Part shown: positions 5,052 through 61,063 of the stretch, one piece after another | Layout of the letters: each line of letters begins with the position of its first letter | Position numbering within the stretch: the stretch's first letter is position 1 | Assembly (NCBI GenBank): GCA_963812155.1 | Contig: CAWETW010000003.1 | Location: forward strand, 384,001-448,000 | Direction: 5' to 3' | DNA: 64,000 bases | Source: Vulcanimicrobiota bacterium | GTDB taxonomy: Bacteria > Vulcanimicrobiota > Vulcanimicrobiia > Vulcanimicrobiales > Vulcanimicrobiaceae | Program-made: the position numbers and the translations under genes | The notes under the pieces: generated by a model | Told to the model about the DNA's origin: nothing | What the model saw: the letters and a program-made list of their open reading frames with translations, nothing else | The model's database searches: none

Positions 5052-5082
5052 AAGGGACCGGCTTGCGCCGGTCCCTTTTCTT
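5052..5082 (+). terminator. Rho-independent terminator
   Basis: AAGGGACCGG-cttgcg-CCGGTCCCTT hairpin followed by TTTCTT. Confidence 0.8.
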
Positions 5083-5083
5083 A

Positions 5084-5124
5084 TGTCATCCTGAGCGGAG
5101 GCGCGCAGCGCCGCAGTCGAAGGA
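5084..5124 (+). repeat. Single full-length TGTCATCC REP-like unit
   Basis: TGTCATCCTGAGCGGA-GGCGC-GCA-GCGCC-GCAGTCGAAGGA between convergent genes. Confidence 0.9.
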
Positions 5125-5133
5125 CGACGTGAG

Positions 5134-21518: not shown

Positions 21519-22709
21519 ACGCGCCGCTCATCGTCGCCGACGCCGGCTCGTTCGAGCGACTCTGCGCGCGCGTCGAAACCGAACGGCGCATCGCGCTCGA
21601 CACGGAGTTTCATACCGAACGCAGTTACGCGCCGAGATTGATGGTCGTGCAGCTCGCCTTCGACGACGGCACGGCTATCGTCGATCCGCTTGGCGATCGC
21701 CGATCTGCGTCCGCTGGTCGCCCGCCTCGTCGAAAAAACGATCGTCGGACACGCCCTCTCGTCGGATCTCAAGATTTTCGCCGATCGCTTCGAGATGGTG
21801 CCGGCGAACGTCTTCGACACGCAAGTCGCGGCGGCGTTTCTCGGTTACGGCATGCAGATTTCGCTCGCGGATTTGGTGCGCGACGTGCAGCACGTCCGTT
21901 TGGCGAAATCGCAAACGGTGAGCGACTGGTCGGCGCGTCCGTTCACGCCTAAGCAACTCGAATATCTCGTCGACGACGTCGCGCATCTGCTGCCGATGTA
22001 CGACGCGCTGCGCGAACGGTTGGAGCATATGGGGCGGTACGAGTGGGCGCTCGAGGAGTGCGTCGAGCTGGGTGAAATCGCGCGCTACCGTAACGACGAG
22101 CAGCGCGCGTACCTGCGAATTCCCGGCGCGATGCGAATGAACCGGCGCGAACTCGGCATCCTCAACGAACTCGTGAAGCTGCGCGATCGCATCGCGCGCG
22201 AGCGCGACATTCCGCTCAAGTACGTGATGCCCGACGACGTCGTCAGGCGGCCTGGCGACGCTGCGGCCCAAACGCATCGACGATCTCGCGCAGCTGCGCC
22301 GGCTCGACGCGGGCGCGCGCCGCCAGCTGGGCCCCGCAATTCTGGAAGCCGTGGCGCGCGGCGAAGCCCTCGACGAACGCGTCCTCCCGGAAAGGCCGAA
22401 GCGGCCCCTCGGGTGCGTCGCGCGATACGCTGGCAGCGCTGCTGGGCGTGGTTGTCGGCGAGATCGCCCGCGAGACGGGACTACCGCCCAACCTGCTCGT
22501 GCCGCGTGCCGCGCTCGAACGCGTCGCACGCGAAGTGCCGCGCGATCGCGAACGCTTCGAAGAACTGCTCGCATTGCGTCCGTGGCGTCTCGATCTCGTG
22601 GCCGATCCGTTGTGGCGACTGCTCTCGGGCGAGGCCGGCCTCGACGATCGAAGGCTACGCGGACGGGAACCCGAAAATACGATTTTCCCATGACCTCGCA
22701 CGCGAATAG
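21515..22709 (+). CDS. rnd: Ribonuclease D (frameshifted in this sequence)
   Basis: ALDTEF..ERSY.P.L, FDTQVAAAFLG, SDWS.RP, HRDC RD.IARERD.P spread over several frames. Confidence 0.88.
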
Positions 22710-25442
22710 CTTCAACGCGATCGATACGCTTCGCGTCGGCGATCGCGACTACACGTACTTTCGACTCGACGCGCTCGAACGCGCCGGCCTCGCGAAGCTC
22801 GCGCGACTGCCGTTTTCGCTGAAGATTCTGCTCGAAAATTTGCTGCGCTTCGAAGACGGACGTTCGGTTACCGAAGCGCGACGTCGAAGCGCTCGCGCGA
22901 TGGTCGCCCACGGCTCGACACGAGAAGGAGATCGCGTTCCGGCCCGCGCGCGTGCTGCTGCAAGATTTCACCGGCGTTCCGTGCGTCGTCGATCTTGGCG
23001 GCGATGCGCGACGCGATGGCCGAGATGGGCGGCGATCCCACGGCGATCAATCCGCTGCAGCCGGTCGAACTGGTCATCGATCACTCGGTGCAGGTCGACT
23101 ACTTCGGCTCGGACGCCGCGCTGGCGAAGAATGCCGATCTCGAGTTCGAGCGCAACCGCGAGCGCTATGCGTTCCTGAAGTGGGGACAGTCGGCGCTGCG
23201 CGGCTTCCGCGCGGTTCCGCCCGACACCGGCATCGTGCATCAGGTCAACATCGAGTATCTCGCGCGCGTCGTCTTCGGCGTGGCGACGCGATGCGTCGCG
23301 AGACGTCCGCGTCGCCTATCCCGACACCGCGGTCGGCACCGATTCGCACACGACGATGGTCAACGGGCTCGGCGTGCTCGCGTGGGGCGTCGGCGGTATC
23401 GAAGCCGAAGCCGCGATGCTCGGTCAGCCGGTGACGATGCTCATTCCCGAAGTCGTCGGCGTCCGGCTCGACGGCGAGTTGCGCGAGGGCGTCACGGCGA
23501 CCGATCTCGTGCTGACGATCACGCGAGATGCTGCGCACGCAGGGCGTCGTCGGAAAGTTCGTCGAGTTCTTCGGCAAGCGGTCTCTCCGCGCTGCCCGTC
23601 GCCGATCGCACGACGATCGGCAACATGTCGCCGGAGTTCGGTTCGACCGTCGCGATCTTTCCGATCGACGATCGCACGCTCGAGTATCTGCGCCTCACGG
23701 GACGGGCGCCCGCGCACATCGCGCTCGTCGAAGCGTATGCGAAGGCGCAAGGGCTGTTTCGCACCGACGCGACGCCCGATCCTGAGTTCACCGACGGTGC
23801 TACACCTCGATCTCTCGACCGTCGAACCGAGCCTCGCCGGGCCGCGCCGTCCGCAGGACCGCGTCGCGCTCGCCGACGTCAAGCGCACGTTCGGCGTTGC
23901 GATGGAAGAGTGGATCGCGCAGCGCAGCGGTGCAAACAATGCGATCGCGCGCTTTCAGGACGAAGGCGGCGGCGGAACCGCGACGATCGCGCAGACGGCG
24001 ACCGACGTCTCGCGACGGCGCGGTCGTCATTGCGGCGATCACGAGCTGCACGAACACGTCGAATCCGTCGGTGCTCGTCGGCGCCGGATTGCTCGCGCGC
24101 AACGCGCTTCGGCGCGGACTGAAGACGCAGCCGTGGGTGAAGACGTCGCTTGCGCCGGGTTCGAAAGTCGTGACCGATTATCTTGGCAAAGGCGGGTCTG
24201 CAAGAGTACCTCGACGCGCTCGGCTTCAACCTCGTCGGATACGGCTGCACGACGTGCATCGGAAACTCCGGACCGCTGCCGCCCGACGTCGCGGAAACCG
24301 TCGCCGATCAGCGACCTCGATCGTCGCGGCGGTGCTCTCCGGCAATCGCAACTTCGAAGGGCGCATCCATCCGCAGGTGCGCGCGAACTATCTCGCGTCG
24401 CCGCCGCTGGTCGTCGCCTACGCGCTGACCGGTCGCATGGACGTCGATCTCACCACCGAGCCGCTCGGCCGCGGCAGCGACGGCAAGCCGGTCTACCTCA
24501 AGGACATCTGGCCGAGCGACGACGAGATCGACGAGGTGATGGCGCGCTGCGTCAACGACGAGATGTTCAAAGCGCGCTACTCCGACGTCTTCCGCGGCGA
24601 CGACAACTGGGCGAAGCTCACGGTGCCGACGAGCGAGCGTTACGCGTGGGATCCCGCAGTCGGAGTACGTCAAGAAGCCGCCGTACTTCGACGGGCATGC
24701 CCGCGCAGCCGGTGCCGCCGCTCGACATCGCCGGCGCGCGCGCGCTCGCCGTGCTCGGCGATTCGGTGACGACCGATCACATCTCGCCGGCCGGCAACAT
24801 CGCGCGCAACAGCCCCGCCGGCGAAGTACTCTGATGGAACACGGCATCGAGCCGAAGGATTTCAACTCGTACGGCTCGCGGCGCGGCAATCACGAGGTGA
24901 TGGTGCGCGGCACGTTCGCCAACGTGCGGCTGCGCAACCATCTCGTTCCCGGCGTCGAAGGCGGCGTCACGCGGCATTTGCCGACCGGCGAAGCAGATGT
25001 CGATCTTCGATGCTGCGATGAAATATCGCGACGAGGGCACGCCGCTGATCGTGCTTGCCGGCCGGGAGTACGGTTCGGGGTCGTCGCGCGACTGGGCGGC
25101 CAAGGGGCCGTATCTGCTCGGGATCAAGGCCGTGATCGCGGAGTCGTTCGAGCGCATTCACCGCAGCAATCTCATCGGCATGGGCATGCTGCCGCTCGAG
25201 TACATCGACGGCACACGCATCAGTCGACGTACGGCCTCACCGGCGAAGAAATCTTCGACGTCACCGGGATCGCCGCCGGCATCACGCCGCGCATGCGCGC
25301 AACGGTCAAAGCCACCGACGCCGCAACCGGCAGGTCGATCGAGTTCAAGGTTCGCGTCCGCATCGACACGCCCGACGAAGCCGAATACTACCGCCACGGC
25401 GGCATCTTGCAGTACGTCCTGCGCCAACTCATGGTGTCATAG
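22690..25442 (+). CDS. acnA: Aconitate hydratase A (multiple frameshifts)
   Basis: [84 protein letters not shown]. Confidence 0.95.
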
Positions 25443-25453
25443 CACGCTTTGGG

Positions 25454-25544
25454 TATTATCGTGAGCGTCGTTTAGGTGTCATCCTGAGCAACCTTTGGGT
25501 GTCATCCTGAGCGGAGCATCGCGAAGCGATGCGCAGTCGAAGGA
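25454..25544 (+). repeat. TGTCATCC repeat array, left of TMEM175 gene
   Basis: Units at 25454 (degenerate), 25477 (short) and 25500 (full; hairpin GCATCGC-GAA-GCGATGC); 23-bp spacing. Confidence 0.9.
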
Positions 25545-25554
25545 CGGGCGTGAA

Positions 25555-26190
25555 ATGAACGGCGACGAGCGTACGCTCCATCGGCTCGAAGCGTTCTCCG
25601 ACATCGTCATCGGATTTTGCATCGCCGAGATGGGCCTCAACCTGGTCGTGCCGAAAACGGCCGCGCAACTGCCGTCAATCGTCATCGGAACCGACGGTTT
25701 CGTTACCTCATTCGTTCTCATCGCGATCGTCTGGTGGATCCACCATCGGCTCTTCAAAAGCATATTCGTGCTCAATACCGCAATGGTGATCGTGAACTTC
25801 GCGATGCTGGGTGCGCTGGTGTTGATGGTGTACTTCCAGCAGATCTGCGTGCACCTGATCGCGATTGGCGACGACGTAACCGTCGCGGTGCAGCTCTGGC
25901 TCGTCAGTTACAGCGTGGTCTATGCGCTCGTTGCCGTCATGCTGTGGTACGGCCTGCGGGTCCGATGGCGGATGCTCTCCGAGGATGATTTGCGCTGGGC
26001 GTTCGGCCGCGCCGCCTTAGTCTCGCTCGGATCGCTCATCTTCATCGCCTACGCGCTCATCTTTAAGTATCGAGTCCACTCGAGCGAACTCTTCCTCATA
26101 CTGGCCGTCGTGATAGTGGCGGCACGCTTTGCCGTCAACGGCGTCGTCTCGCGCGTTATCAGCCGCCGCGCGCCGGCTGTGCCAAGCTAA
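25555..26190 (+). CDS. TMEM175 family (DUF1211) putative K+ channel
   Basis: RLEAFSD signature, WWIHHRLF, about six TM segments. Confidence 0.85.
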   Translation: MNGDERTLHRLEAFSDIVIGFCIAEMGLNLVVPKTAAQLPSIVIGTDGFVTSFVLIAIVWWIHHRLFKSIFVLNTAMVIVNFAMLGALVLMVYFQQICVHLIAIGDDVTVAVQLWLVSYSVVYALVAVMLWYGLRVRWRMLSEDDLRWAFGRAALVSLGSLIFIAYALIFKYRVHSSELFLILAVVIVAARFAVNGVVSRVISRRAPAVPS

Positions 26191-26193
26191 CCG

Positions 26194-26271
26194 TCCTTCG
26201 ACTGCGGGCTCCTTCGACGCGCTCGCTGCGCGAACTCCACTCAGGATGACATGCCTCCGCTCGGGATAACA
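26194..26271 (-). repeat. TGTCATCC repeat array, right of TMEM175 gene (inverted)
   Basis: TCCTTCGACTGC at 26194; near-full unit 26210-26251; short unit CTCCGCTCGGGATAACA ending 26271. Confidence 0.88.
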
Positions 26272-26348
26272 TGGTTGTTCAACACGGCTACGCCGCTCGA
26301 GTACTGCCCGCGGAGATGGCGCTCACAGCGACGAAGCACAGTGGGTCT

Positions 26349-28829
26349 ATGGAAAGCGAGGGGCGCCACAGCATCTCTTTGGATTTTGGACGCCTGTTGC
26401 GGCGACTTCGCTTAGGGGCGGGGCTTTCACAGGAGGCGCTTGCGGAACGGGCGCGGATGAGTACCACCGGAGTCGGTGCGCTGGAACGCGGCTATCGCCG
26501 AAATCCCCAACGCGAGACGATCGCGCTTTTGTCCGAGGCATTGGCGCTGAACGACGACCAGCTACGGGAGTTCGAGGCGGTGGCGCGCTCGGGAGCATCG
26601 CGACGCGTCGGCGGCGGCTCGCGCGCCGCTGAATCCGTCTGCGACACCACACGGTCGAATCTTCCGCGGCCGCTAACCAGTTTTTTTGGCCGCGACGACG
26701 ACGTGGCCAGCGTCAAAGATTCGTTGAAGAGCCACCGCCTGGTCACGCTCACCGGGTCCGCAGGCGTCGGAAAGACGCGCCTTGCCATTCACGTCGGCGA
26801 GGAACTTCTCGATCGATATCTTGACGGCGTATGGTTTGCGGATTTCGCTACAATAAGCGATCCGGAGCTCGTCGCGAGCGTCGCCGCTCAAGCCGTCGGG
26901 ATGAGCCAAAAGGAAGAACGTCGCGTCGATGAGGCGATTGCACAATGGCTTCGACGCAAGAACGTGTTGCTGATCTTCGACAACTGCGAGCACGTTTGGG
27001 AGGTGGCGGCGGCGCTCGCACACACAATTTTGACGGCGGCGCAGGACGTCCGCATTTTAGCGACGTCGCGTCGACGCCTTTACGTCGGCGGAGAAACGGT
27101 TTATCGGCTACCGTCACTCGCCGTTCCCCAAGAATCATCCCGCTTGACGAGCGACCTCGCGCTGCGCTACAGCGCCGTAGCGCTGTTCGCAGATCGCGCC
27201 AAAGCCGCCGACGCAGCTTTTGCGCTCGATGACGAAAGCGCACCAATCATTTCGAAGATCTGCCGGCGGCTCGACGGCATTCCACTCGCGATCGAACTCG
27301 CAGCCGCGCGCGTCACGGTGCTATCGATTCCTAACCTCGCGCAGCGGCTCAACGAACGCTTCGGGCTTCTCACCAGCGGAAGCCGTCTCGCGCTTCCGCG
27401 GCAACAGACGCTCTTGGCATTAATCGACTGGAGCTTCGAGTTGCTTGAACCGAAAGAACAATTATTTTTTGCTCGTTTAGGCATTCTTGCCGGCGGTTTC
27501 GATATCGATACCGCTGCGTCGGTGTGCGCAGGCGACGCTCTCGAGGAACCCTCCGTCCTCGAGCTACTCGTATCGCTGGTCGACAAATCACTCATCGTTG
27601 CCGATACGACCGGCGAACGGGAGCGCTTCCGGCTTCTCGAATCGACAGCGGCGTACGCGCTGGAGAAACTGAAGGCGTTGGGCGAATACGAACGCTTGGC
27701 ACGCCGTCACGCCGAGTATTTTCGTAACCAGGCCACGATTGCCGACGAAAAATACGGCTCGGACTCAACGATCGGGTGGGTTAAGGCCGCCAAACTCGAA
27801 CTTGACAATTATAGAGCCGCGTTGGAGTGGACGTTAACGCGAGAGAACGATGCCGTGGTGGGCGGCGCAATTGCGGGCGCGTTGGGATGGCTTTGGTGGC
27901 AAGCTGCTCTGGGAGTCGAAGGCCGTTACTGGATTGAACTCGCTCTCGCGCGCGTCGGCAAAGACGATCACCCGGCAATCGTGGCGAGCCTCTGGATGGC
28001 GTCGAGCCTGCTTACCAATGGGAAGCGCAAATACGAGGCGGCTCAGAAGGCCGTAGCGCTGTATGAGGCATCATGTAATCTGCAAGGTACCGCTCGTGCG
28101 CGCCGATTTATTGGTTGGTCGTTGTATCATATGGGGCGCTTCGATGAGGCGCGCGAGGAGATCGATCGGGCGGCCGGCGCGTCGTTGTCGTGCGGGGACG
28201 AGTCGAGCGCGGCATACTGTCTCCTCCTGATGGGTCTTATCGAGATGAGCCGAGGCGACTTTGCGACCGGACGCACGCTATTCAATCAGGGAATAGCCAA
28301 GCTCAATGCGCTTGGGGACGAACTCGGCAGTTCCATTGCATTGGGCAACATGGCGGAACTGGAATTTGCATCGGACGATCCGATGCAAGCCTTGCGGTAT
28401 GCCAACCAGGCACTCGCCATCGTCGCGACGGGGAGGACGCTAGCGCTGACGGCCATGTGGCATGCCAACAGTGCGATTTATCGCGTCGCCGTCGGCGATT
28501 TGGCTGGAGCAACCGAGTCGGCGCGCTCGGCGGTGGAGCTGGCTCAGCCCGAACAAGACAATCTATCCGTGGCTACTGCCCTTCAACACCTTGCCCTACT
28601 CGCATCGCTCGCCGGCGATAAACGACGCGCAGCTCAGGTGCTAGGCTACGTGAATAAGCAATACGACCGGTTTGGTATCACACGCGGGCATACGGAGCAA
28701 TGGGGCTACACGAAGCTCGTGACGGCGTTGCGCGAGGAGTTGATGGATGATGAGATCGCGGAACGTGCAATCGAAGGCGGATCTTGGACGGAAGATCGAG
28801 CGGTCGAAGAGGCGCTAAAAGAGCAATAG
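26349..28829 (+). CDS. XRE HTH - STAND (NB-ARC-like) ATPase - TPR regulator; start uncertain (ORF open from 26271)
   Basis: LSQEALAERA..LERG HTH; NLP.PLTSFFGR, GSAGVGKTRLA, LLIFDNCEH, RLDGIPLAIELAAAR; TPR-like helical C-terminus. Confidence 0.88.
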   Translation: MESEGRHSISLDFGRLLRRLRLGAGLSQEALAERARMSTTGVGALERGYRRNPQRETIALLSEALALNDDQLREFEAVARSGASRRVGGGSRAAESVCDTTRSNLPRPLTSFFGRDDDVASVKDSLKSHRLVTLTGSAGVGKTRLAIHVGEELLDRYLDGVWFADFATISDPELVASVAAQAVGMSQKEERRVDEAIAQWLRRKNVLLIFDNCEHVWEVAAALAHTILTAAQDVRILATSRRRLYVGGETVYRLPSLAVPQESSRLTSDLALRYSAVALFADRAKAADAAFALDDESAPIISKICRRLDGIPLAIELAAARVTVLSIPNLAQRLNERFGLLTSGSRLALPRQQTLLALIDWSFELLEPKEQLFFARLGILAGGFDIDTAASVCAGDALEEPSVLELLVSLVDKSLIVADTTGERERFRLLESTAAYALEKLKALGEYERLARRHAEYFRNQATIADEKYGSDSTIGWVKAAKLELDNYRAALEWTLTRENDAVVGGAIAGALGWLWWQAALGVEGRYWIELALARVGKDDHPAIVASLWMASSLLTNGKRKYEAAQKAVALYEASCNLQGTARARRFIGWSLYHMGRFDEAREEIDRAAGASLSCGDESSAAYCLLLMGLIEMSRGDFATGRTLFNQGIAKLNALGDELGSSIALGNMAELEFASDDPMQALRYANQALAIVATGRTLALTAMWHANSAIYRVAVGDLAGATESARSAVELAQPEQDNLSVATALQHLALLASLAGDKRRAAQVLGYVNKQYDRFGITRGHTEQWGYTKLVTALREELMDDEIAERAIEGGSWTEDRAVEEALKEQ

Positions 28830-28837
28830 GAGAGCGC

Positions 28838-30431
28838 CTAGAGCGAGACCCGTTTGAAATCGCGCAGCAGCGCGGCGACGTAGGCGAGGAAACGCGCGGC
28901 GCCGGCGCCGTCGATGACGCGATGATCGTAACTGACGCTGATCGGCAGCATGAGGCGCGGAACGAACTCGCTGCCGTTCCATACCGGTTTCATCGACGTT
29001 CTCACCGCGCCAAGTATCGCGACTTCGGGGGCGTTGACGATTTGCGTGAAGGCGGTGCCGCCGATGCCGCCGATCGACGAGATCGTAAACGTTCCGCCCT
29101 GCATGTCGCCCAAGCCCAGTTTGCCGTCGCGCGCTTTTGCCGCGAGTTCCGACGTCTCGGGCGGCGATTTCGAGCAAGCCCTTCGAGTCGGCGCCCTTGA
29201 GAACCGGAACGACCAGGCCGTTCGGCGTGTCGGCGGCGAAGCCGATGTTGTAGTAGCGCTTGTAGACGAGTTCGTCGCCGTCGAGCGATGCGTTGAACTC
29301 GGGAAAGCGCTGCAGCGCGGCGACCGACACCTTGATGAGGAACGCCAGCATCGTGAGTTTGGCGCCGCCCGCGTTTGCTTTGTTCCGCGTTGATTTCGTT
29401 GCGGAACGCTTCGAGATCGGTGACGTCGGCTTCGTCGTAGTTCGTGATGTGCGGAATCTGCAGCCAGTTGCGATGCAGGTTCGGTCCGGAGAGCTTCTTG
29501 ATGCGCGGCAGCGGCTTGCGTTCGATCTCACCGAACTGCGCGAAGTCGACCTTCGGCCACGCGGGAAGGCCCGCAAACGTGGCCGCCGCTCGACGGCTCG
29601 CTGCGCGCAGCGCGCTCTTCACGAAACCCTGCACGTCTTCGCGCGTGATCCGGCCGTGCGGGCCGCTGCCGCGCAGACCGGCGAGATTCACGCCGAGTTC
29701 GCGCGCGAAACGCCGGATCGCCGGGCTCGCATGCACGCCGCCGGCTGCCGCAACCGGTTCGGGCGAAGCGGAGGGCGTAGCCGCTGAGGAAGGTTGCGGT
29801 TGCGCCGGCTTCGTTTGTGGCTGCGATTGCGCCGCGGAAGCAGCGGGGGCCGTTTCCGCTTTAGCGTCCGCCGCTGGTTTGCAGCGTTGCGATGACGCTG
29901 CCGTGCGACACTTTGTCGCCGGGTTTGACGCTGACGGTCTGCGATCGTCCCGGCGGCCGACGCCGGCACTTCCATCGACGCCTTCTCGCTCTCGAGCACC
30001 GCGAGCGGCGCTTCCTTGACGATCGTCTGCCCGGGCTTGACGAGCACTTCGACGACCGGCACGTCTTTGAAATCGCCGATGTCGGGCACGACGAGATCGA
30101 TCGTCGTGCCACCCGCGCTCGCGGCAGATTCCGGCGGTGCAGGCGCCGGCGACGCCGCCGGTTTTTCGTCGCGTGCGGCACTCGCGTCGCCGTTCGCAGC
30201 GATCGTGAGCAGCACGGTTCCTTCCGAGACCTTGTCGCCGACTCGTACCTTCACGTCGCGTACCGTCCCGGACGCCGTCGAAGGCACTTCCATCGACGCC
30301 TTTTCGCTCTCGAGCACGACGAGCGGCGCTTCTTTGGAGACGCTTTGCCCCGGCTTGACCAGCACTTCAACCACCGGAACGTCTTTGAAATCGCCGATAT
30401 CGGGAACGCTGACGTCGATCGTCCGGCTCAT
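28838..30431 (-). CDS. aceF: Pyruvate dehydrogenase E2, two lipoyl domains (frameshifted)
   Basis: Two [18 protein letters not shown] lipoyl domains, [22 protein letters not shown]. Confidence 0.93.
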
Positions 30432-49763: not shown

Positions 49764-49768
49764 CGCTT

Positions 49769-49992
49769 TGTCATCCTGAGCGGAGCGCGCCCCTGTCATC
49801 CTGAGCGGAGCGCCGCAGGCGCGCAGTCGAAGGACCCGCGCACTGTCATCCCGAGCGGAGCGTGCGCCCCATGTCATCCCGAGCGGAGCGCCGCCCCATG
49901 TCATCCCGAGCGGAGCGCCGCCCCATGTCATCCTGAGCGAAGCGCGCTCCATGTCATCCTGAGCGAAGCGCCGTAGGCGCGCAGTCGAAGGA
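49769..49992 (+). repeat. TGTCATCC repeat array (7 units), left of GIY-YIG gene
   Basis: TGTCATCC(T/C)GAGCG(G/A)AGCG at 49769, 49794 (full), 49844, 49872, 49899, 49926 and 49952 (full). Confidence 0.97.
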
Positions 49993-50044
49993 CGCGCCAG
50001 CCAACGCGTCTTGCCGTTTTTCCGCGCGGCGCAGATGAAGCGAC

Positions 50045-50356
50045 GTGGAGAAATACTTCGTTTACATGTTGCTTTGCGCGGACGATTCATTCTACGTCGG
50101 CGTCACGAACAATGTGGAAGGACGCGTATGGCAGCACAACACGGGCTGGGACGCCGATTCCTACACGCATCGGCGTCGTCCCGTCCAGTTGGTACACTGC
50201 TCGGGTTTCAGGAACGTTTTCGATGCAATCAGTTGGGAGAAGCAACTCAAGGGATGGTCACGCGCCAAGAAGCGCGCTCTCATGCATGACGATTGGCAGG
50301 GCGTTCATCAGATCGTTACCAACGAGCGCCGCAGGCGCAAAAAACAGAAAGCGTAG
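50045..50356 (+). CDS. Small stand-alone GIY-YIG nuclease (YhbQ/UPF0213-like)
   Basis: YFVYML...FYVGVTNN (GIY/YIG equivalents), conserved Arg (GRV.QH), YT..RRP..LV, Glu in WEKQLKGWSRAKK.AL. Confidence 0.93.
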   Translation: MEKYFVYMLLCADDSFYVGVTNNVEGRVWQHNTGWDADSYTHRRRPVQLVHCSGFRNVFDAISWEKQLKGWSRAKKRALMHDDWQGVHQIVTNERRRRKKQKA

Positions 50357-50359
50357 CCG

Positions 50360-50565
50360 TCCTTCGACTGCGGCGTGCTTCGCACGCCTTCGCTCAGGAT
50401 GACATAGTGAGGTGGCGTGCTTCGGACGCCTTCGCTCAGGATGACATAGTGAGGTGGCGTGCTTCGCACGCCTTCGCTCAGGATGAGTGAGATGGCGTGC
50501 TTCGCACGCCTTCGCTCGAGATGACCGAGGAGCTCCGCTCGGGATGACACCGACATCCGCTCAGG
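50360..50565 (-). repeat. TGTCATCC repeat array (5-6 units), right of GIY-YIG gene (inverted)
   Basis: Full unit 50360-50404; further units ending about 50446, 50486, 50525 and 50549; partial at 50556-50565; first units have about 42-bp period. Confidence 0.96.
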
Positions 50566-57244: not shown

Positions 57245-57362
57245 TCCTTCGACTGCGCGCCGTCGGCGCTCCGCTCAGGATGACACAGAGGACGCCTTCG
57301 CTCAGGATGACACAGAGAAGCTCCACTCAGGATGACACCGAGGAGTTCCGCTTAGGATGACA
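57245..57362 (-). repeat. TGTCATCC repeat array (4 units) between convergent genes
   Basis: Full unit 57245-57285; short units ending 57312, 57337 and 57362. Confidence 0.95.
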
Positions 57363-58942: not shown

Positions 58943-61063
58943 GCTTTTGCCTCGCGGTCGAGCACCAGCAGGTCTTCGTGCACGCGCAACGTCCAGCCGG
59001 GCGCGACGTACGTCGTCGTGTCGTACTGCTCGACGATCGCAGCACCGCGTATCATGTCGCCGCCGGCAAGCGCGTCGCGCGCATACACCGGTGACGACGC
59101 GAAACGATTTCCAAGCCACACGGGGCGTTCGCCGGCCTGCGGCACCTCTCGCGCTTCGACGCCGCGGCCCGCGGCCGCTTCGCTCAGCGTGACACTGGGA
59201 GGCGCGGCGCTCGGCGTGACGGCGGCAGCGGTCGCCGGCGCGAAACTGCCGGTGGCGGTGAGACGGGCGCCGACGATTTCGATGCGTTCGTCCGGCGCGT
59301 CGTATCCGTAACGCGCGCGGTGCGCGGCGTGGAAGGCTTGCGCGGCGCCGTCTCGGGAGCCGTCGTACGGAATCGTCAGCTCGAAGCTTTGGCCCACGTA
59401 TCGCGCTTCGAGTTCCCGTCGAAACTCAATCGTGCCGTCATCTGCGCCTTGTGCGCGCAGCGCGTCGCGTCCGCGCGCTTCCCATTCGTCGAACGTGCGA
59501 TCGAGGGCGGCGGGGTCAACGTCGTCGAGCACGCGCATGACCGGCGCGGTGAAGCGTTCGCGCAGCTCTGCAGCGAGCAAACCTTGGGCCGAGAAGACCC
59601 CGGGGCGCGCGGGAACGAGAATGCGCGCGATGCCGAGTTCCTCGGCGAGCGCGCACGCGTGCAGCGGGCCGCCTCCCCCGAACGCTGCTAGCGTGAAGGC
59701 GCGCGGATCGAGTCCCCGTTCGAGCGTCACGATGCGCAGCGCCTTAGCCATCTGCGCGTCGACGATCGTCACGATGCCGGCGGCGGTCTGCTCGACGCTC
59801 AGGCCTACAGCGTTGGCGAGCGCCGAGATCGCGGCGTGGGAGCGACTCGACTCGATTGGAAACGTGCCGCCGAGTAACGCGCCGGAATTCGAGCCGTCCG
59901 AGCACGACGTTCGCGTCGGTGACCGTCGCGCGATCCGATTCGCCGTAACACGCCGGCCCCGGATCGGCGCCTGCCGATAGCGGTCCCACGCGCAGCGCGC
60001 CCGCGCCGTCGACCCACGCGATCGTGCCGCCGCCCGCGCTTACCTCTGCGAGATCGACGAACGGAAAGCGCACCGGATAGCCGCTGCCTTTGACCGCGCG
60101 GCCGCTGTGCGTTCGTCCTGCGGCCTCGAACTCCGACGTGACTTGCGCGACGCCGTCGACGATCGCGCCGGCCTTCGCCGTCGTGCCGCCCATGTCGAAC
60201 GAAAGGAGGCGGCGCACGCCGTTTTGCCGGCCGAGCGCCGCGGCGGCGACCGCGCCGCCGGCCGGTCCGCTTTCGATGGTTGCCGCGGGATGCGTCGCAG
60301 CGCGGGCGGCAGTCGCCAATCCGCCGTCGCTGTGCATGACGTACAGCGGAACGCGTACGCCGCGCTCGTGCAACGCCGCCGAAACGCGGTCGAGATAACG
60401 GGCGACGATCGGCACGAGCGCCGCGTTGACGACGGCGGTCGAGAAGCGTTCGTACTCGCGATACTCCGGATCGACGTCTGACGACGCGACGACGGCGGCG
60501 TTCGGGAGCGCCTTCGCGACGGCTTCGGCAACGCGCCGCTCGTGCGCGCCGTTCGCATAGGCGTTGAGCAAACACACGGCGACCGCGGCCACGCCGGGAC
60601 GCGCCCGGAGATCGTCGCACACGCCGGCGAGCGACGCTTCGTCGAGCGGCTCGACGATTTCGCCGCCGGCGCCGATCCGTTCGCCCACGGTCAGACGGTC
60701 GTCGCGCGCGACCAGCGGCACCGGCCGCCGCACGAAAAGATCGTAGATCGCGCTGCGGTTTTGGCGCCCGATTTCGATGACGTCGCGAAAGCCGCGCGTG
60801 GTGACCATCGCGATGCGCGGCAACTCCAGGCCGATTTGGCCGAGCAGTGCGTTGGTGGCAATCGTGGTCGAAAGGCCGAGAAAGTCGACGGCTGAGGCGT
60901 CGCACCGGCACGCGTCGAGGGCGGCGTCGAAAGCAGCGAGCACGCCGCGTTCCGGTTCGCGCGGCGTGCTCGGGATCTTCAACGAAAGTACGTTGCCGGT
61001 TTCGGAATCGAGCGCCGCGACGTCCGTAAACGTGCCGCCGACGTCGATGCCTACACGCAACAT
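58939..61063 (-). CDS. Hydantoinase A / 5-oxoprolinase subunit (frameshift near 59890)
   Basis: GIDVGGTFTD, REYERFST, ESGPAGG, DMGGTT, GP.SAGADPGPACY, AFGGGGPLHA; GAGGAG RBS. Confidence 0.93.

Follow-up and report, generated by a model that had tools for sequence, protein, structure and literature searches.

The allele of a resident TMEM175 gene between inward-facing repeat arrays was replaced from a related species in a Vulcanimicrobiota genome

The TMEM175-family gene that lies between two inward-facing repeat arrays in the window (the whole stretch of 64,000 nucleotides analysed here) was found to be resident in a variable slot, which has acnA on one side and a 2-oxoacid dehydrogenase E2 gene on the other. 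Its allele has been replaced in place by a version from the lineage of G007, a related species. The arrays at the edges are likely entry points for such exchange, probably because a repeat-associated GIY-YIG nuclease cuts incoming single-stranded DNA (ssDNA) just before the repeat head. We give this reading as a whole a probability of about 0.55.

The features of the locus are collected in Table 1. The arrays around TMEM175 face inward in the same way as those around the nuclease gene, and all coordinates given for them by the first-pass annotation hold. It was also confirmed on the sequence that the bracket contains almost nothing but the ORF and lies directly after acnA. The heads of the left array start at 25434, 25453, 25476 and 25499, the first two being degenerate and the outermost overlapping the acnA stop; the tail ends at 25544, which leaves 10 nt before the ATG of TMEM175 (25555). 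The right array stands 3 nt from the TMEM175 stop, with TAA at 26188-26190 followed by CCGTCCTTCGACTGCGG at 26191-26207. The acnA gene is present in frameshifted pieces in the assembly, and these ORF pieces matched Aconitase and Aconitase_C in Pfam. Frameshifts were seen in acnA and several of its neighbours, both at 22351-25442 of the window and elsewhere. Those in the acnA region are probably sequencing errors, because contigs from a related population differ from the assembly by single bases there (24823, 24831 and 24994).

Table 1. Positions of the genes and repeat arrays in the window, with the basis of each assignment.
Feature	Position	Strand	Basis and remarks
acnA (aconitase), 3' part	23356..25442	+	Pfam PF00330, PF00694; relatives; conserved left flank of the slot
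Left repeat array	25434..25549	+	Sequence, relatives; four heads, 9-nt spacers, one inner hairpin, one tail
TMEM175-family potassium channel gene, 211 aa	25555..26190	+	PF06736, E 3e-10
Right repeat array	26191..26271	-	Sequence; tail beside TMEM175 stop; heads 26238-26251, 26258-26271
XRE-HTH / NB-ARC / TPR regulator gene	26271..28829 (start 26271 or 26349)	+	Pfam
2-oxoacid dehydrogenase E2 gene, 3' part (labelled pdhC here)	28838..29576	-	PF00198; conserved, flanks the slot on its right
Left array of the nuclease gene, seven units	49768..49994	+	Sequence
GIY-YIG nuclease gene, 103 aa	50045..50356	+	PF01541, E 6e-16
Right array of the nuclease gene	50357..50551	-	Sequence
Further array of the same repeat family	5082-5127	+	
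Further array of the same repeat family	57245-57361	-	
Further array of the same repeat family	59154-59196	-	

The repeat is CGTC-like and forms about 90-110 arrays genome-wide (109 with an HMM caller, 94 with a stricter head-based caller); the reversed genome sequence, used as a control, gave 0 arrays. The HMM caller mis-orients compound arrays in the relative G001, and the head-based caller was applied afterwards; this one misses some variant heads, for example in the left array of the 313-aa insert of G001 described below. Each unit consists of a head (TGTCATCCTGAGCG; consensus in the left array of TMEM175, TGTCATCCTGAGC), a variable inner hairpin and a tail (GCAGTCGAAGGA), and the arrays are built of heads in tandem closed by one full unit. 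The units are 33-63 nt long with the inner hairpin, and 49 of 51 contain TGTCA, the unpaired (C/T)GTC end. The published SRM pattern was matched by 0 of the 51 units, and whole units folded no better than shuffled sequence (z -1.7 to 0.8). Stepwise local spread was ruled out, since the similarity of units did not fall off as they lie further apart (Mantel rho 0.00 in each of the two genomes).

An identical stop-repeat junction at TMEM175 and at the nuclease gene had been taken as a sign of a cassette. The letters after the stop are exactly the same at both loci (at the nuclease gene TAG at 50354-50356, then the 17-mer CCGTCCTTCGACTGCGG at 50357-50373), but the shared part is the conserved end of the repeat. 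The 17-mer occurs three times in the genome, the third time without a preceding stop, and CCG stands in front of 11 of the 54 tails of this genome. A stop codon was found at most 16 nt from the tail in 23 of 43 cases, and a stop triplet exactly 3 nt from it at two of 54 tails, those of the TMEM175 and nuclease junctions. The junction was discarded as a cassette signature, since the CCG belongs to the loose end of the repeat, and the match is at most a mild coincidence.

A TMEM175 match was detected in 12 of the 14 same-genus genomes, with acnA directly upstream in 11 of them; in the twelfth the contig ends inside the gene. The linkage to acnA was also kept at two of seven loci from other genera. 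In five of the 11 linked genomes the head pattern is missing from the entire genome. Beside TMEM175, seven of the 11 have no array, two have one on the left only and two on the right only, and TMEM175 with arrays on both sides was found in this genome only. As the linkage exists in repeat-free genomes, TMEM175 adjoined acnA before the arrays did; this is at odds with a mobile element as well as with a replaced nuclease gene. Both had been suggested by the first-pass annotation, and the acnA synteny (11 of 12, five repeat-free genomes included) contradicts both; stable synteny with acnA in relatives lacking the repeats, which it had named beforehand as refuting the cargo reading, is what was found. 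In G017, acnA is followed by two tandem TMEM175 genes, the first of which is separated from acnA by a + array.

The closest relative, G001, is 92% identical to this genome (G000) and colinear with it (2.80 of 2.96 Mb examined). TMEM175 differs from its G001 counterpart by 21%, as compared to a median of 7%, and ranks 34th of 1769 genes in divergence. The sites uniting G000 with G007, which is more distant than G001, outnumber those uniting G000 with G001 by 34 to 1 in TMEM175, and the corresponding counts are 8 versus 22 in acnA and 9 versus 52 in the E2 gene. AU tests with 7-8 taxa rejected the grouping (G000,G001) for TMEM175 (p 0.0015) and the grouping (G000,G007) for both flanks (p 0.015 and 0.014). 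The data fit a single event with G000 as the recipient, as we infer from the branch lengths: the G001-G007 distance scales with the faster rate of TMEM175, and the G000-G007 distance is shorter than in the flanks. The swap can be bounded no more closely than about 25425-25550 at its left end and 26190-28830 at its right end, and both flanks regain the species topology at the arrays (on the left at 125-nt resolution, on the right coarsely).

The slot also varies among the relatives. The left array is old at the site; in G007, G014 and soil contigs a single head is what remains of it after collapse. In G007 only GTGTCATCCTGAG stands in front of the TMEM175 start codon, and G007 and G014 both break off after this head at the same base. 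The spacer AACCTTTGG is common to G001 and the left array of the window. At the position of the right array, an array is also present in G007 and G003 and none in G001. In soil contigs of three out of four runs (three studies), 25440 is joined to 25548 with 7 letters between them, which means that the array has collapsed and the gene has been kept. Comparison of the region downstream of acnA revealed no empty site, the gene being there in 11 of 12 genomes, but another gene occupies it in G014, where the order is acnA, a truncated head, an unrelated 210-aa ORF on the opposite strand and the E2 gene. This ORF (L197:257-889) had no Pfam match; by eye its start is lipoprotein-like. In this genome the accessory gene of the slot is the XRE/NB-ARC/TPR gene, which lies outside the bracket on the head side of the right array and was found at the slot in 0 of 14 same-genus genomes. 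Paralogues of it, about 68% identical, occur elsewhere in the genus. In the repeat-free genomes G004, G010 and G013, 1-2 kb of other DNA lies between TMEM175 and the E2 gene. The slot of G008 has IS pieces (rve integrase core; DDE_Tnp_1_4) at both edges, with contig breaks (L198:288-722, L199:486-1118).

Elsewhere in the genomes, genes also lie between arrays. In G001 a 313-aa ORF stands between inward arrays (2523686-2524950). No more than about 440 nt separate its two flanks in any of the 14 other genomes, which indicates a clean gain in G001. The same genome holds a second nuclease gene and a gene for a 446-aa choice-of-anchor repeat protein (L092:2737-4971) between arrays that are adjacent in G000; this nuclease has its own repeat variant, with the head GTCACGCTGAGC. 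At G000:C1:389337-391910, two tandem genes of ~320 aa each lie between array copies, in what looks like a small cassette stack, and G001 has only a decayed repeat there. The suggestion that the repeats delimit exchangeable units is thus supported by the allele swapped in place, by the alternative gene of G014 and by the single-gene gains between inward arrays in G001, but TMEM175 itself is not a jumper.

Measured against chance, inward bracketing is borderline, being significant with a local shuffle and not with a genome-wide one. Within 3 kb, this genome has four inward pairs and 0 outward, with 1.8 expected (P 0.086 genome-wide, 0.009 local), and G001 has five and 0, with 3.6 expected (P 0.27 and 0.043). 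A looser caller gave five inward pairs in this genome against 1.9 expected (P 0.026). The four pairs here comprise two that enclose conserved DNA (11-12% divergent), one that is half private and that of TMEM175.

A side preference was seen where arrays border species-private DNA. Among the 442 ends of private stretches, an array points inward with its tail at 24 and with its head at 2, some events being counted in both genomes; arrays mark only these 26 ends, and in most array-edged stretches just one of the two ends carries an array. Counted by gene, private DNA lies on the tail side in 19 cases and on the head side in 5 (two events counted twice), with p 0.007 against even odds and p 0.07 after allowing for the tail side's 63% share of the free space. 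Unannotated ORFs are among the 17 private ORFs scanned, alongside NHL-propeller, alpha/beta-hydrolase, YceI and PDZ proteins. Point divergence beside private arrays showed no tail-side excess (p 0.2-0.8), and co-conversion tracts in the form of raised point divergence were ruled out there, none being found. Genes adjacent to arrays exceed 15% divergence from G001 more often (11 of 80) than other genes (76 of 1689; p 0.0014), and the medians of the two groups are equal (7.1-7.3%). The arrays themselves are labile: 31 of 62 are common to this genome and G001, and the array states at the TMEM175 site differ among relatives.

The orientation of the arrays changes along the chromosome. Up to the nuclease gene this contig has 9+/3- arrays, and past it 2+/37-. 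In G001 the counts are 15+/5- between dnaA (1.798 Mb) and the nuclease gene (2.329 Mb), and 7+/30- between the nuclease gene and the skew terminus near 0.3 Mb; the stretch past the terminus, up to 1.02 Mb, has 5+/47-. Arrays are sparse in the 0.8 Mb to the left of dnaA. The GC skew of G001 turns near 1.8 and 0.3 Mb and the arrays stay on - across 0.3 Mb, which rules out a replichore rule in G001. Private arrays alone follow the same pattern (11+/2- before the nuclease gene, 2+/18- after; p 3e-5), so an old rearrangement was ruled out as well. Gene context was likewise rejected as the cause, the flip appearing among co-oriented and convergent neighbours alike. The flip at the nuclease gene is thus kept even by young arrays, and replication direction gives no explanation for it. 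The maximum-likelihood change-point on this contig falls between the two arrays of TMEM175, with support reaching past the nuclease gene; a second, weaker range lies near 575-596 kb, and in G001 the support is wider (about 2.03 to 2.34 Mb). TMEM175 lies in this flip zone, and its inward pair is therefore partly a by-product.

In G007, 69 of the 70 tails listed on contig 3 are on the - strand (among the best 100 of 170 matches). G019 has one + locus before the nuclease gene and six - loci after it. In G023, whose nuclease gene lies near the expected terminus, the counts are 11-/2+ up to dnaA and 20+/9- beyond it, and G011 gave a weak signal, with 4+/3- before a broken nuclease copy and - after it. 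G020, with mixed clusters, and a broader listing of G019 with + matches only were left out of the comparison. The orientation in all these lineages is compatible with convergence on the nuclease gene, and in G023, possibly also in G019, it fits replichores equally. The flip in mid-replichore comes from one lineage, because G000, G001 and G007 are kin. In the literature outside subscription papers, nothing was found on the orientation of such arrays relative to replichores or on a tail-side rule.

The best surviving alternative is that the repeats are selfish, REP-like insertions in tolerant intergenic sites, with the arrays passive and homologous recombination of the ordinary kind, between the conserved flanks of TMEM175, responsible for its swap. 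Such passive repeats would agree with the variable slot of repeat-free genomes, with the conserved genes found on both sides of 155 of the 183 arrays and with the inward excess, which is not significant against the genome-wide shuffle; a +/- pair is also to be expected where the change-point falls, between the arrays of TMEM175. They sit poorly with the species topology being regained on both flanks directly at the arrays, with two species breaking at the same base after the head and with the clean bracketed gain in G001. The weakening of the tail bias under spacing control speaks for them, the orientation of 24 versus 2 at private ends against them. On balance we regard this alternative as rather unlikely.

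The nuclease of the window has a single GIY-YIG domain (PF01541 over residues 3-76 of 103 aa). Close homologues (E below 1e-15) were found in 11 of 41 genomes with repeats alongside, the repeat variants being lineage-specific, and the location of the gene changes from species to species, with inward arrays around it. Repeat heads lie beside all 10 intact close homologues, as compared to 0 of 20 distant, housekeeping-type homologues. No close homologue was detected in the repeat-bearing G006, G008, G009 and G014, whose assemblies consist of 30-330 contigs. The protein is 32% identical to an NTS-flanked gonococcal SsnA homologue, with 36.6 bits and a pairwise E of 3e-9 (the Ssn paper used a cut of E < 1e-10), and its score against YazA is higher, 55.5 bits. 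It also matched the UPF0213 structures 1ZG2 and 1YWL, and an NCBIfam search assigned no family. A tree of 49 rows (quick search, midpoint root; the G036 row and the broken copy of G011 excluded) placed the clade of the window nuclease (SH-aLRT 92) outside the SsnA clade (98). These two and a third clade with flanking repeats formed one group (94), separate from YazA and the housekeeping types. Judged by its sequence, the nuclease putatively belongs to a lineage that is sister to the Ssn ssDNA nucleases, is flanked by repeats and falls outside the SsnA clade; it is Ssn-like by layout and not assigned as an Ssn member. The third clade consists of small GIY-YIG genes from Nocardioides and Methylobacterium (L194, L195, L196, L202) with other flanking repeats (GGTGGTTGAGG..., CCTCATCCTGAGG...) and is likewise outside the SsnA clade. 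Repeat-paired nucleases would accordingly form a wider group than the described family. A ComEC family gene is present in the genome. If the predicted ssDNA cutting is true, it would represent a new specificity outside the described Ssn clade.

For the exchange through arrays that we favour, we infer the enzymatic steps from SsnA. The nuclease would cut ssDNA a few bases 5' of the GTCA end, on one strand only, and the cut fragment would begin with the head and carry tail-side DNA only. A crossover at the resident head, together with RecA-type recombination further along, would then swap or add the tail-side genes, and the same exchange could rebuild or collapse the array at the head. A single array would suffice. 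It is predicted that heads persist, that tail-side DNA changes and that arrays grow or collapse at the head, which agrees with the observed states; the counter-point is that the slot varies in genomes without repeats too and that the accessory gene of this genome lies on the head side.

A broader version, in which cutting before the heads makes up a directional system of gene capture and swapping and the repeats of the chromosome are kept pointing at the nuclease gene independently of the terminus, is tentative, and we consider it doubtful. If true, it would imply a strand-specific process organised around the nuclease gene.

It could also be supposed that each inward pair forms the two ends of a non-autonomous element, the nuclease cutting both outer heads and moving the unit, with TMEM175 as an old, fixed passenger and the inserts of G001 as younger ones. 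The inward arrays around nuclease genes at different sites across species would suit such an element, as would the second nuclease and 446-aa genes of G001 between arrays juxtaposed in G000 and the four and five inward pairs against 0 and 0 outward. We nevertheless find it improbable: no bracketed TMEM175 copy was found at another site, two paralogues in this genome have no array within 10 kb, and the one-ended arrays of most array-edged private stretches do not fit two ends. Further, none of the joints listed skipped or circled TMEM175 in the contigs of four runs (contigs drop rare forms), and no target duplication was seen by eye. That the arrays instead protect the enclosed gene, the nuclease restricting incoming ssDNA at the repeats and lowering replacement, with the swap as a rare escape, is highly improbable, for although deletion of ssnA is reported to give approximately five-fold higher transformation with NTS-bearing DNA (PMC11893778), array-adjacent genes here are more often highly divergent, not less, and TMEM175 itself was swapped.

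By analogy, the TMEM175 slot would work like the array-linked gene exchange of the dRS3 and NTS-SsnA systems of Neisseria. In the part of Chenal et al. 2025 (PMC11893778) drawn on here, SsnA binds its repeat on one ssDNA strand and cuts a few bases upstream, and in N. meningitidis it restricts transformation with NTS-gene-NTS DNA. The same text remarks on the IS-like repeat-gene-repeat layout of NTS and on their clusters around membrane-protein genes. The likeness lies in a small single-domain GIY-YIG gene between oriented, GTCA-headed hairpin repeats that are also scattered over the genome (PMC11893778, same part). The repeat here differs in being longer, with a variable inner hairpin and no SRM pattern, and the nuclease in having its own clade. 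As far as that portion of PMC11893778 goes, restriction of transformation is reported, not tail-side gain or chromosome polarity. The names Eremiobacter, Vulcanimicrobium, UPF0213 and cd10456 are absent from 13 of the 14 supplements of this paper.

For the dRS3/NIME arrays, the text available from Bentley et al. 2007 (PMC1797815) describes syntenic sites with dynamic content, lower identity of flanking orthologues and recombination end points at arrays. It proposes a first crossover at the repeat that RecA completes, exchange of an enclosed gene by array pairs, and insertion of array-flanked genes into arrays (PMC1797815). The present case concerns another phylum and a soil organism, and a between-species allele swap is shown by a tree test. 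The arrays here are of one orientation, those of Neisseria mixed, and new DNA leans to one side here. The candidate enzyme is a GIY-YIG nuclease, as compared to a phage recombinase in Neisseria (PMC1797815). The CGTC-tagged REPs, in the part of Di Nocera et al. 2013 (PMC3733652) consulted, share with our repeat the TGTC/CGTC unpaired end, the intergenic position, the many copies and the proximity to stop codons. Their 8-9 bp stem, 4-5 nt loop and CCA tail were not met here, and tandem heads with one tail dominate rather than the head-head dimers of that account (PMC3733652).

Literature searches gave nothing that links UPF0213, GIY-YIG and repeats and nothing relevant on TMEM175 with aconitase, and the name Eremiobacter was absent among the matches listed for such repeats. 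In REPtrons, the gene of a RAYT (an HUH enzyme) is bracketed by its own REP/BIME repeats, which are also dispersed. The likeness is that of a gene for an ssDNA-acting enzyme bracketed by its own dispersed repeats, the enzyme here being a predicted GIY-YIG nuclease and not HUH. IS200/IS605 elements show a lagging-strand bias, whereas orientation here is independent of the replichore in G000 and G001.

For Neisseria, REP-type repeats have been proposed as drivers of exchange in adjacent genes, without a direction in the parts of PMC11893778 and PMC1797815 used here. Relative to the Neisseria systems, the directionality and the chromosome polarity look new, and the side rule would follow from the known cut position of SsnA. 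The soil lineage offers a dated between-species swap inside an array pair, alternative cargo at the same base and a bracketed gain with an empty ancestral site.
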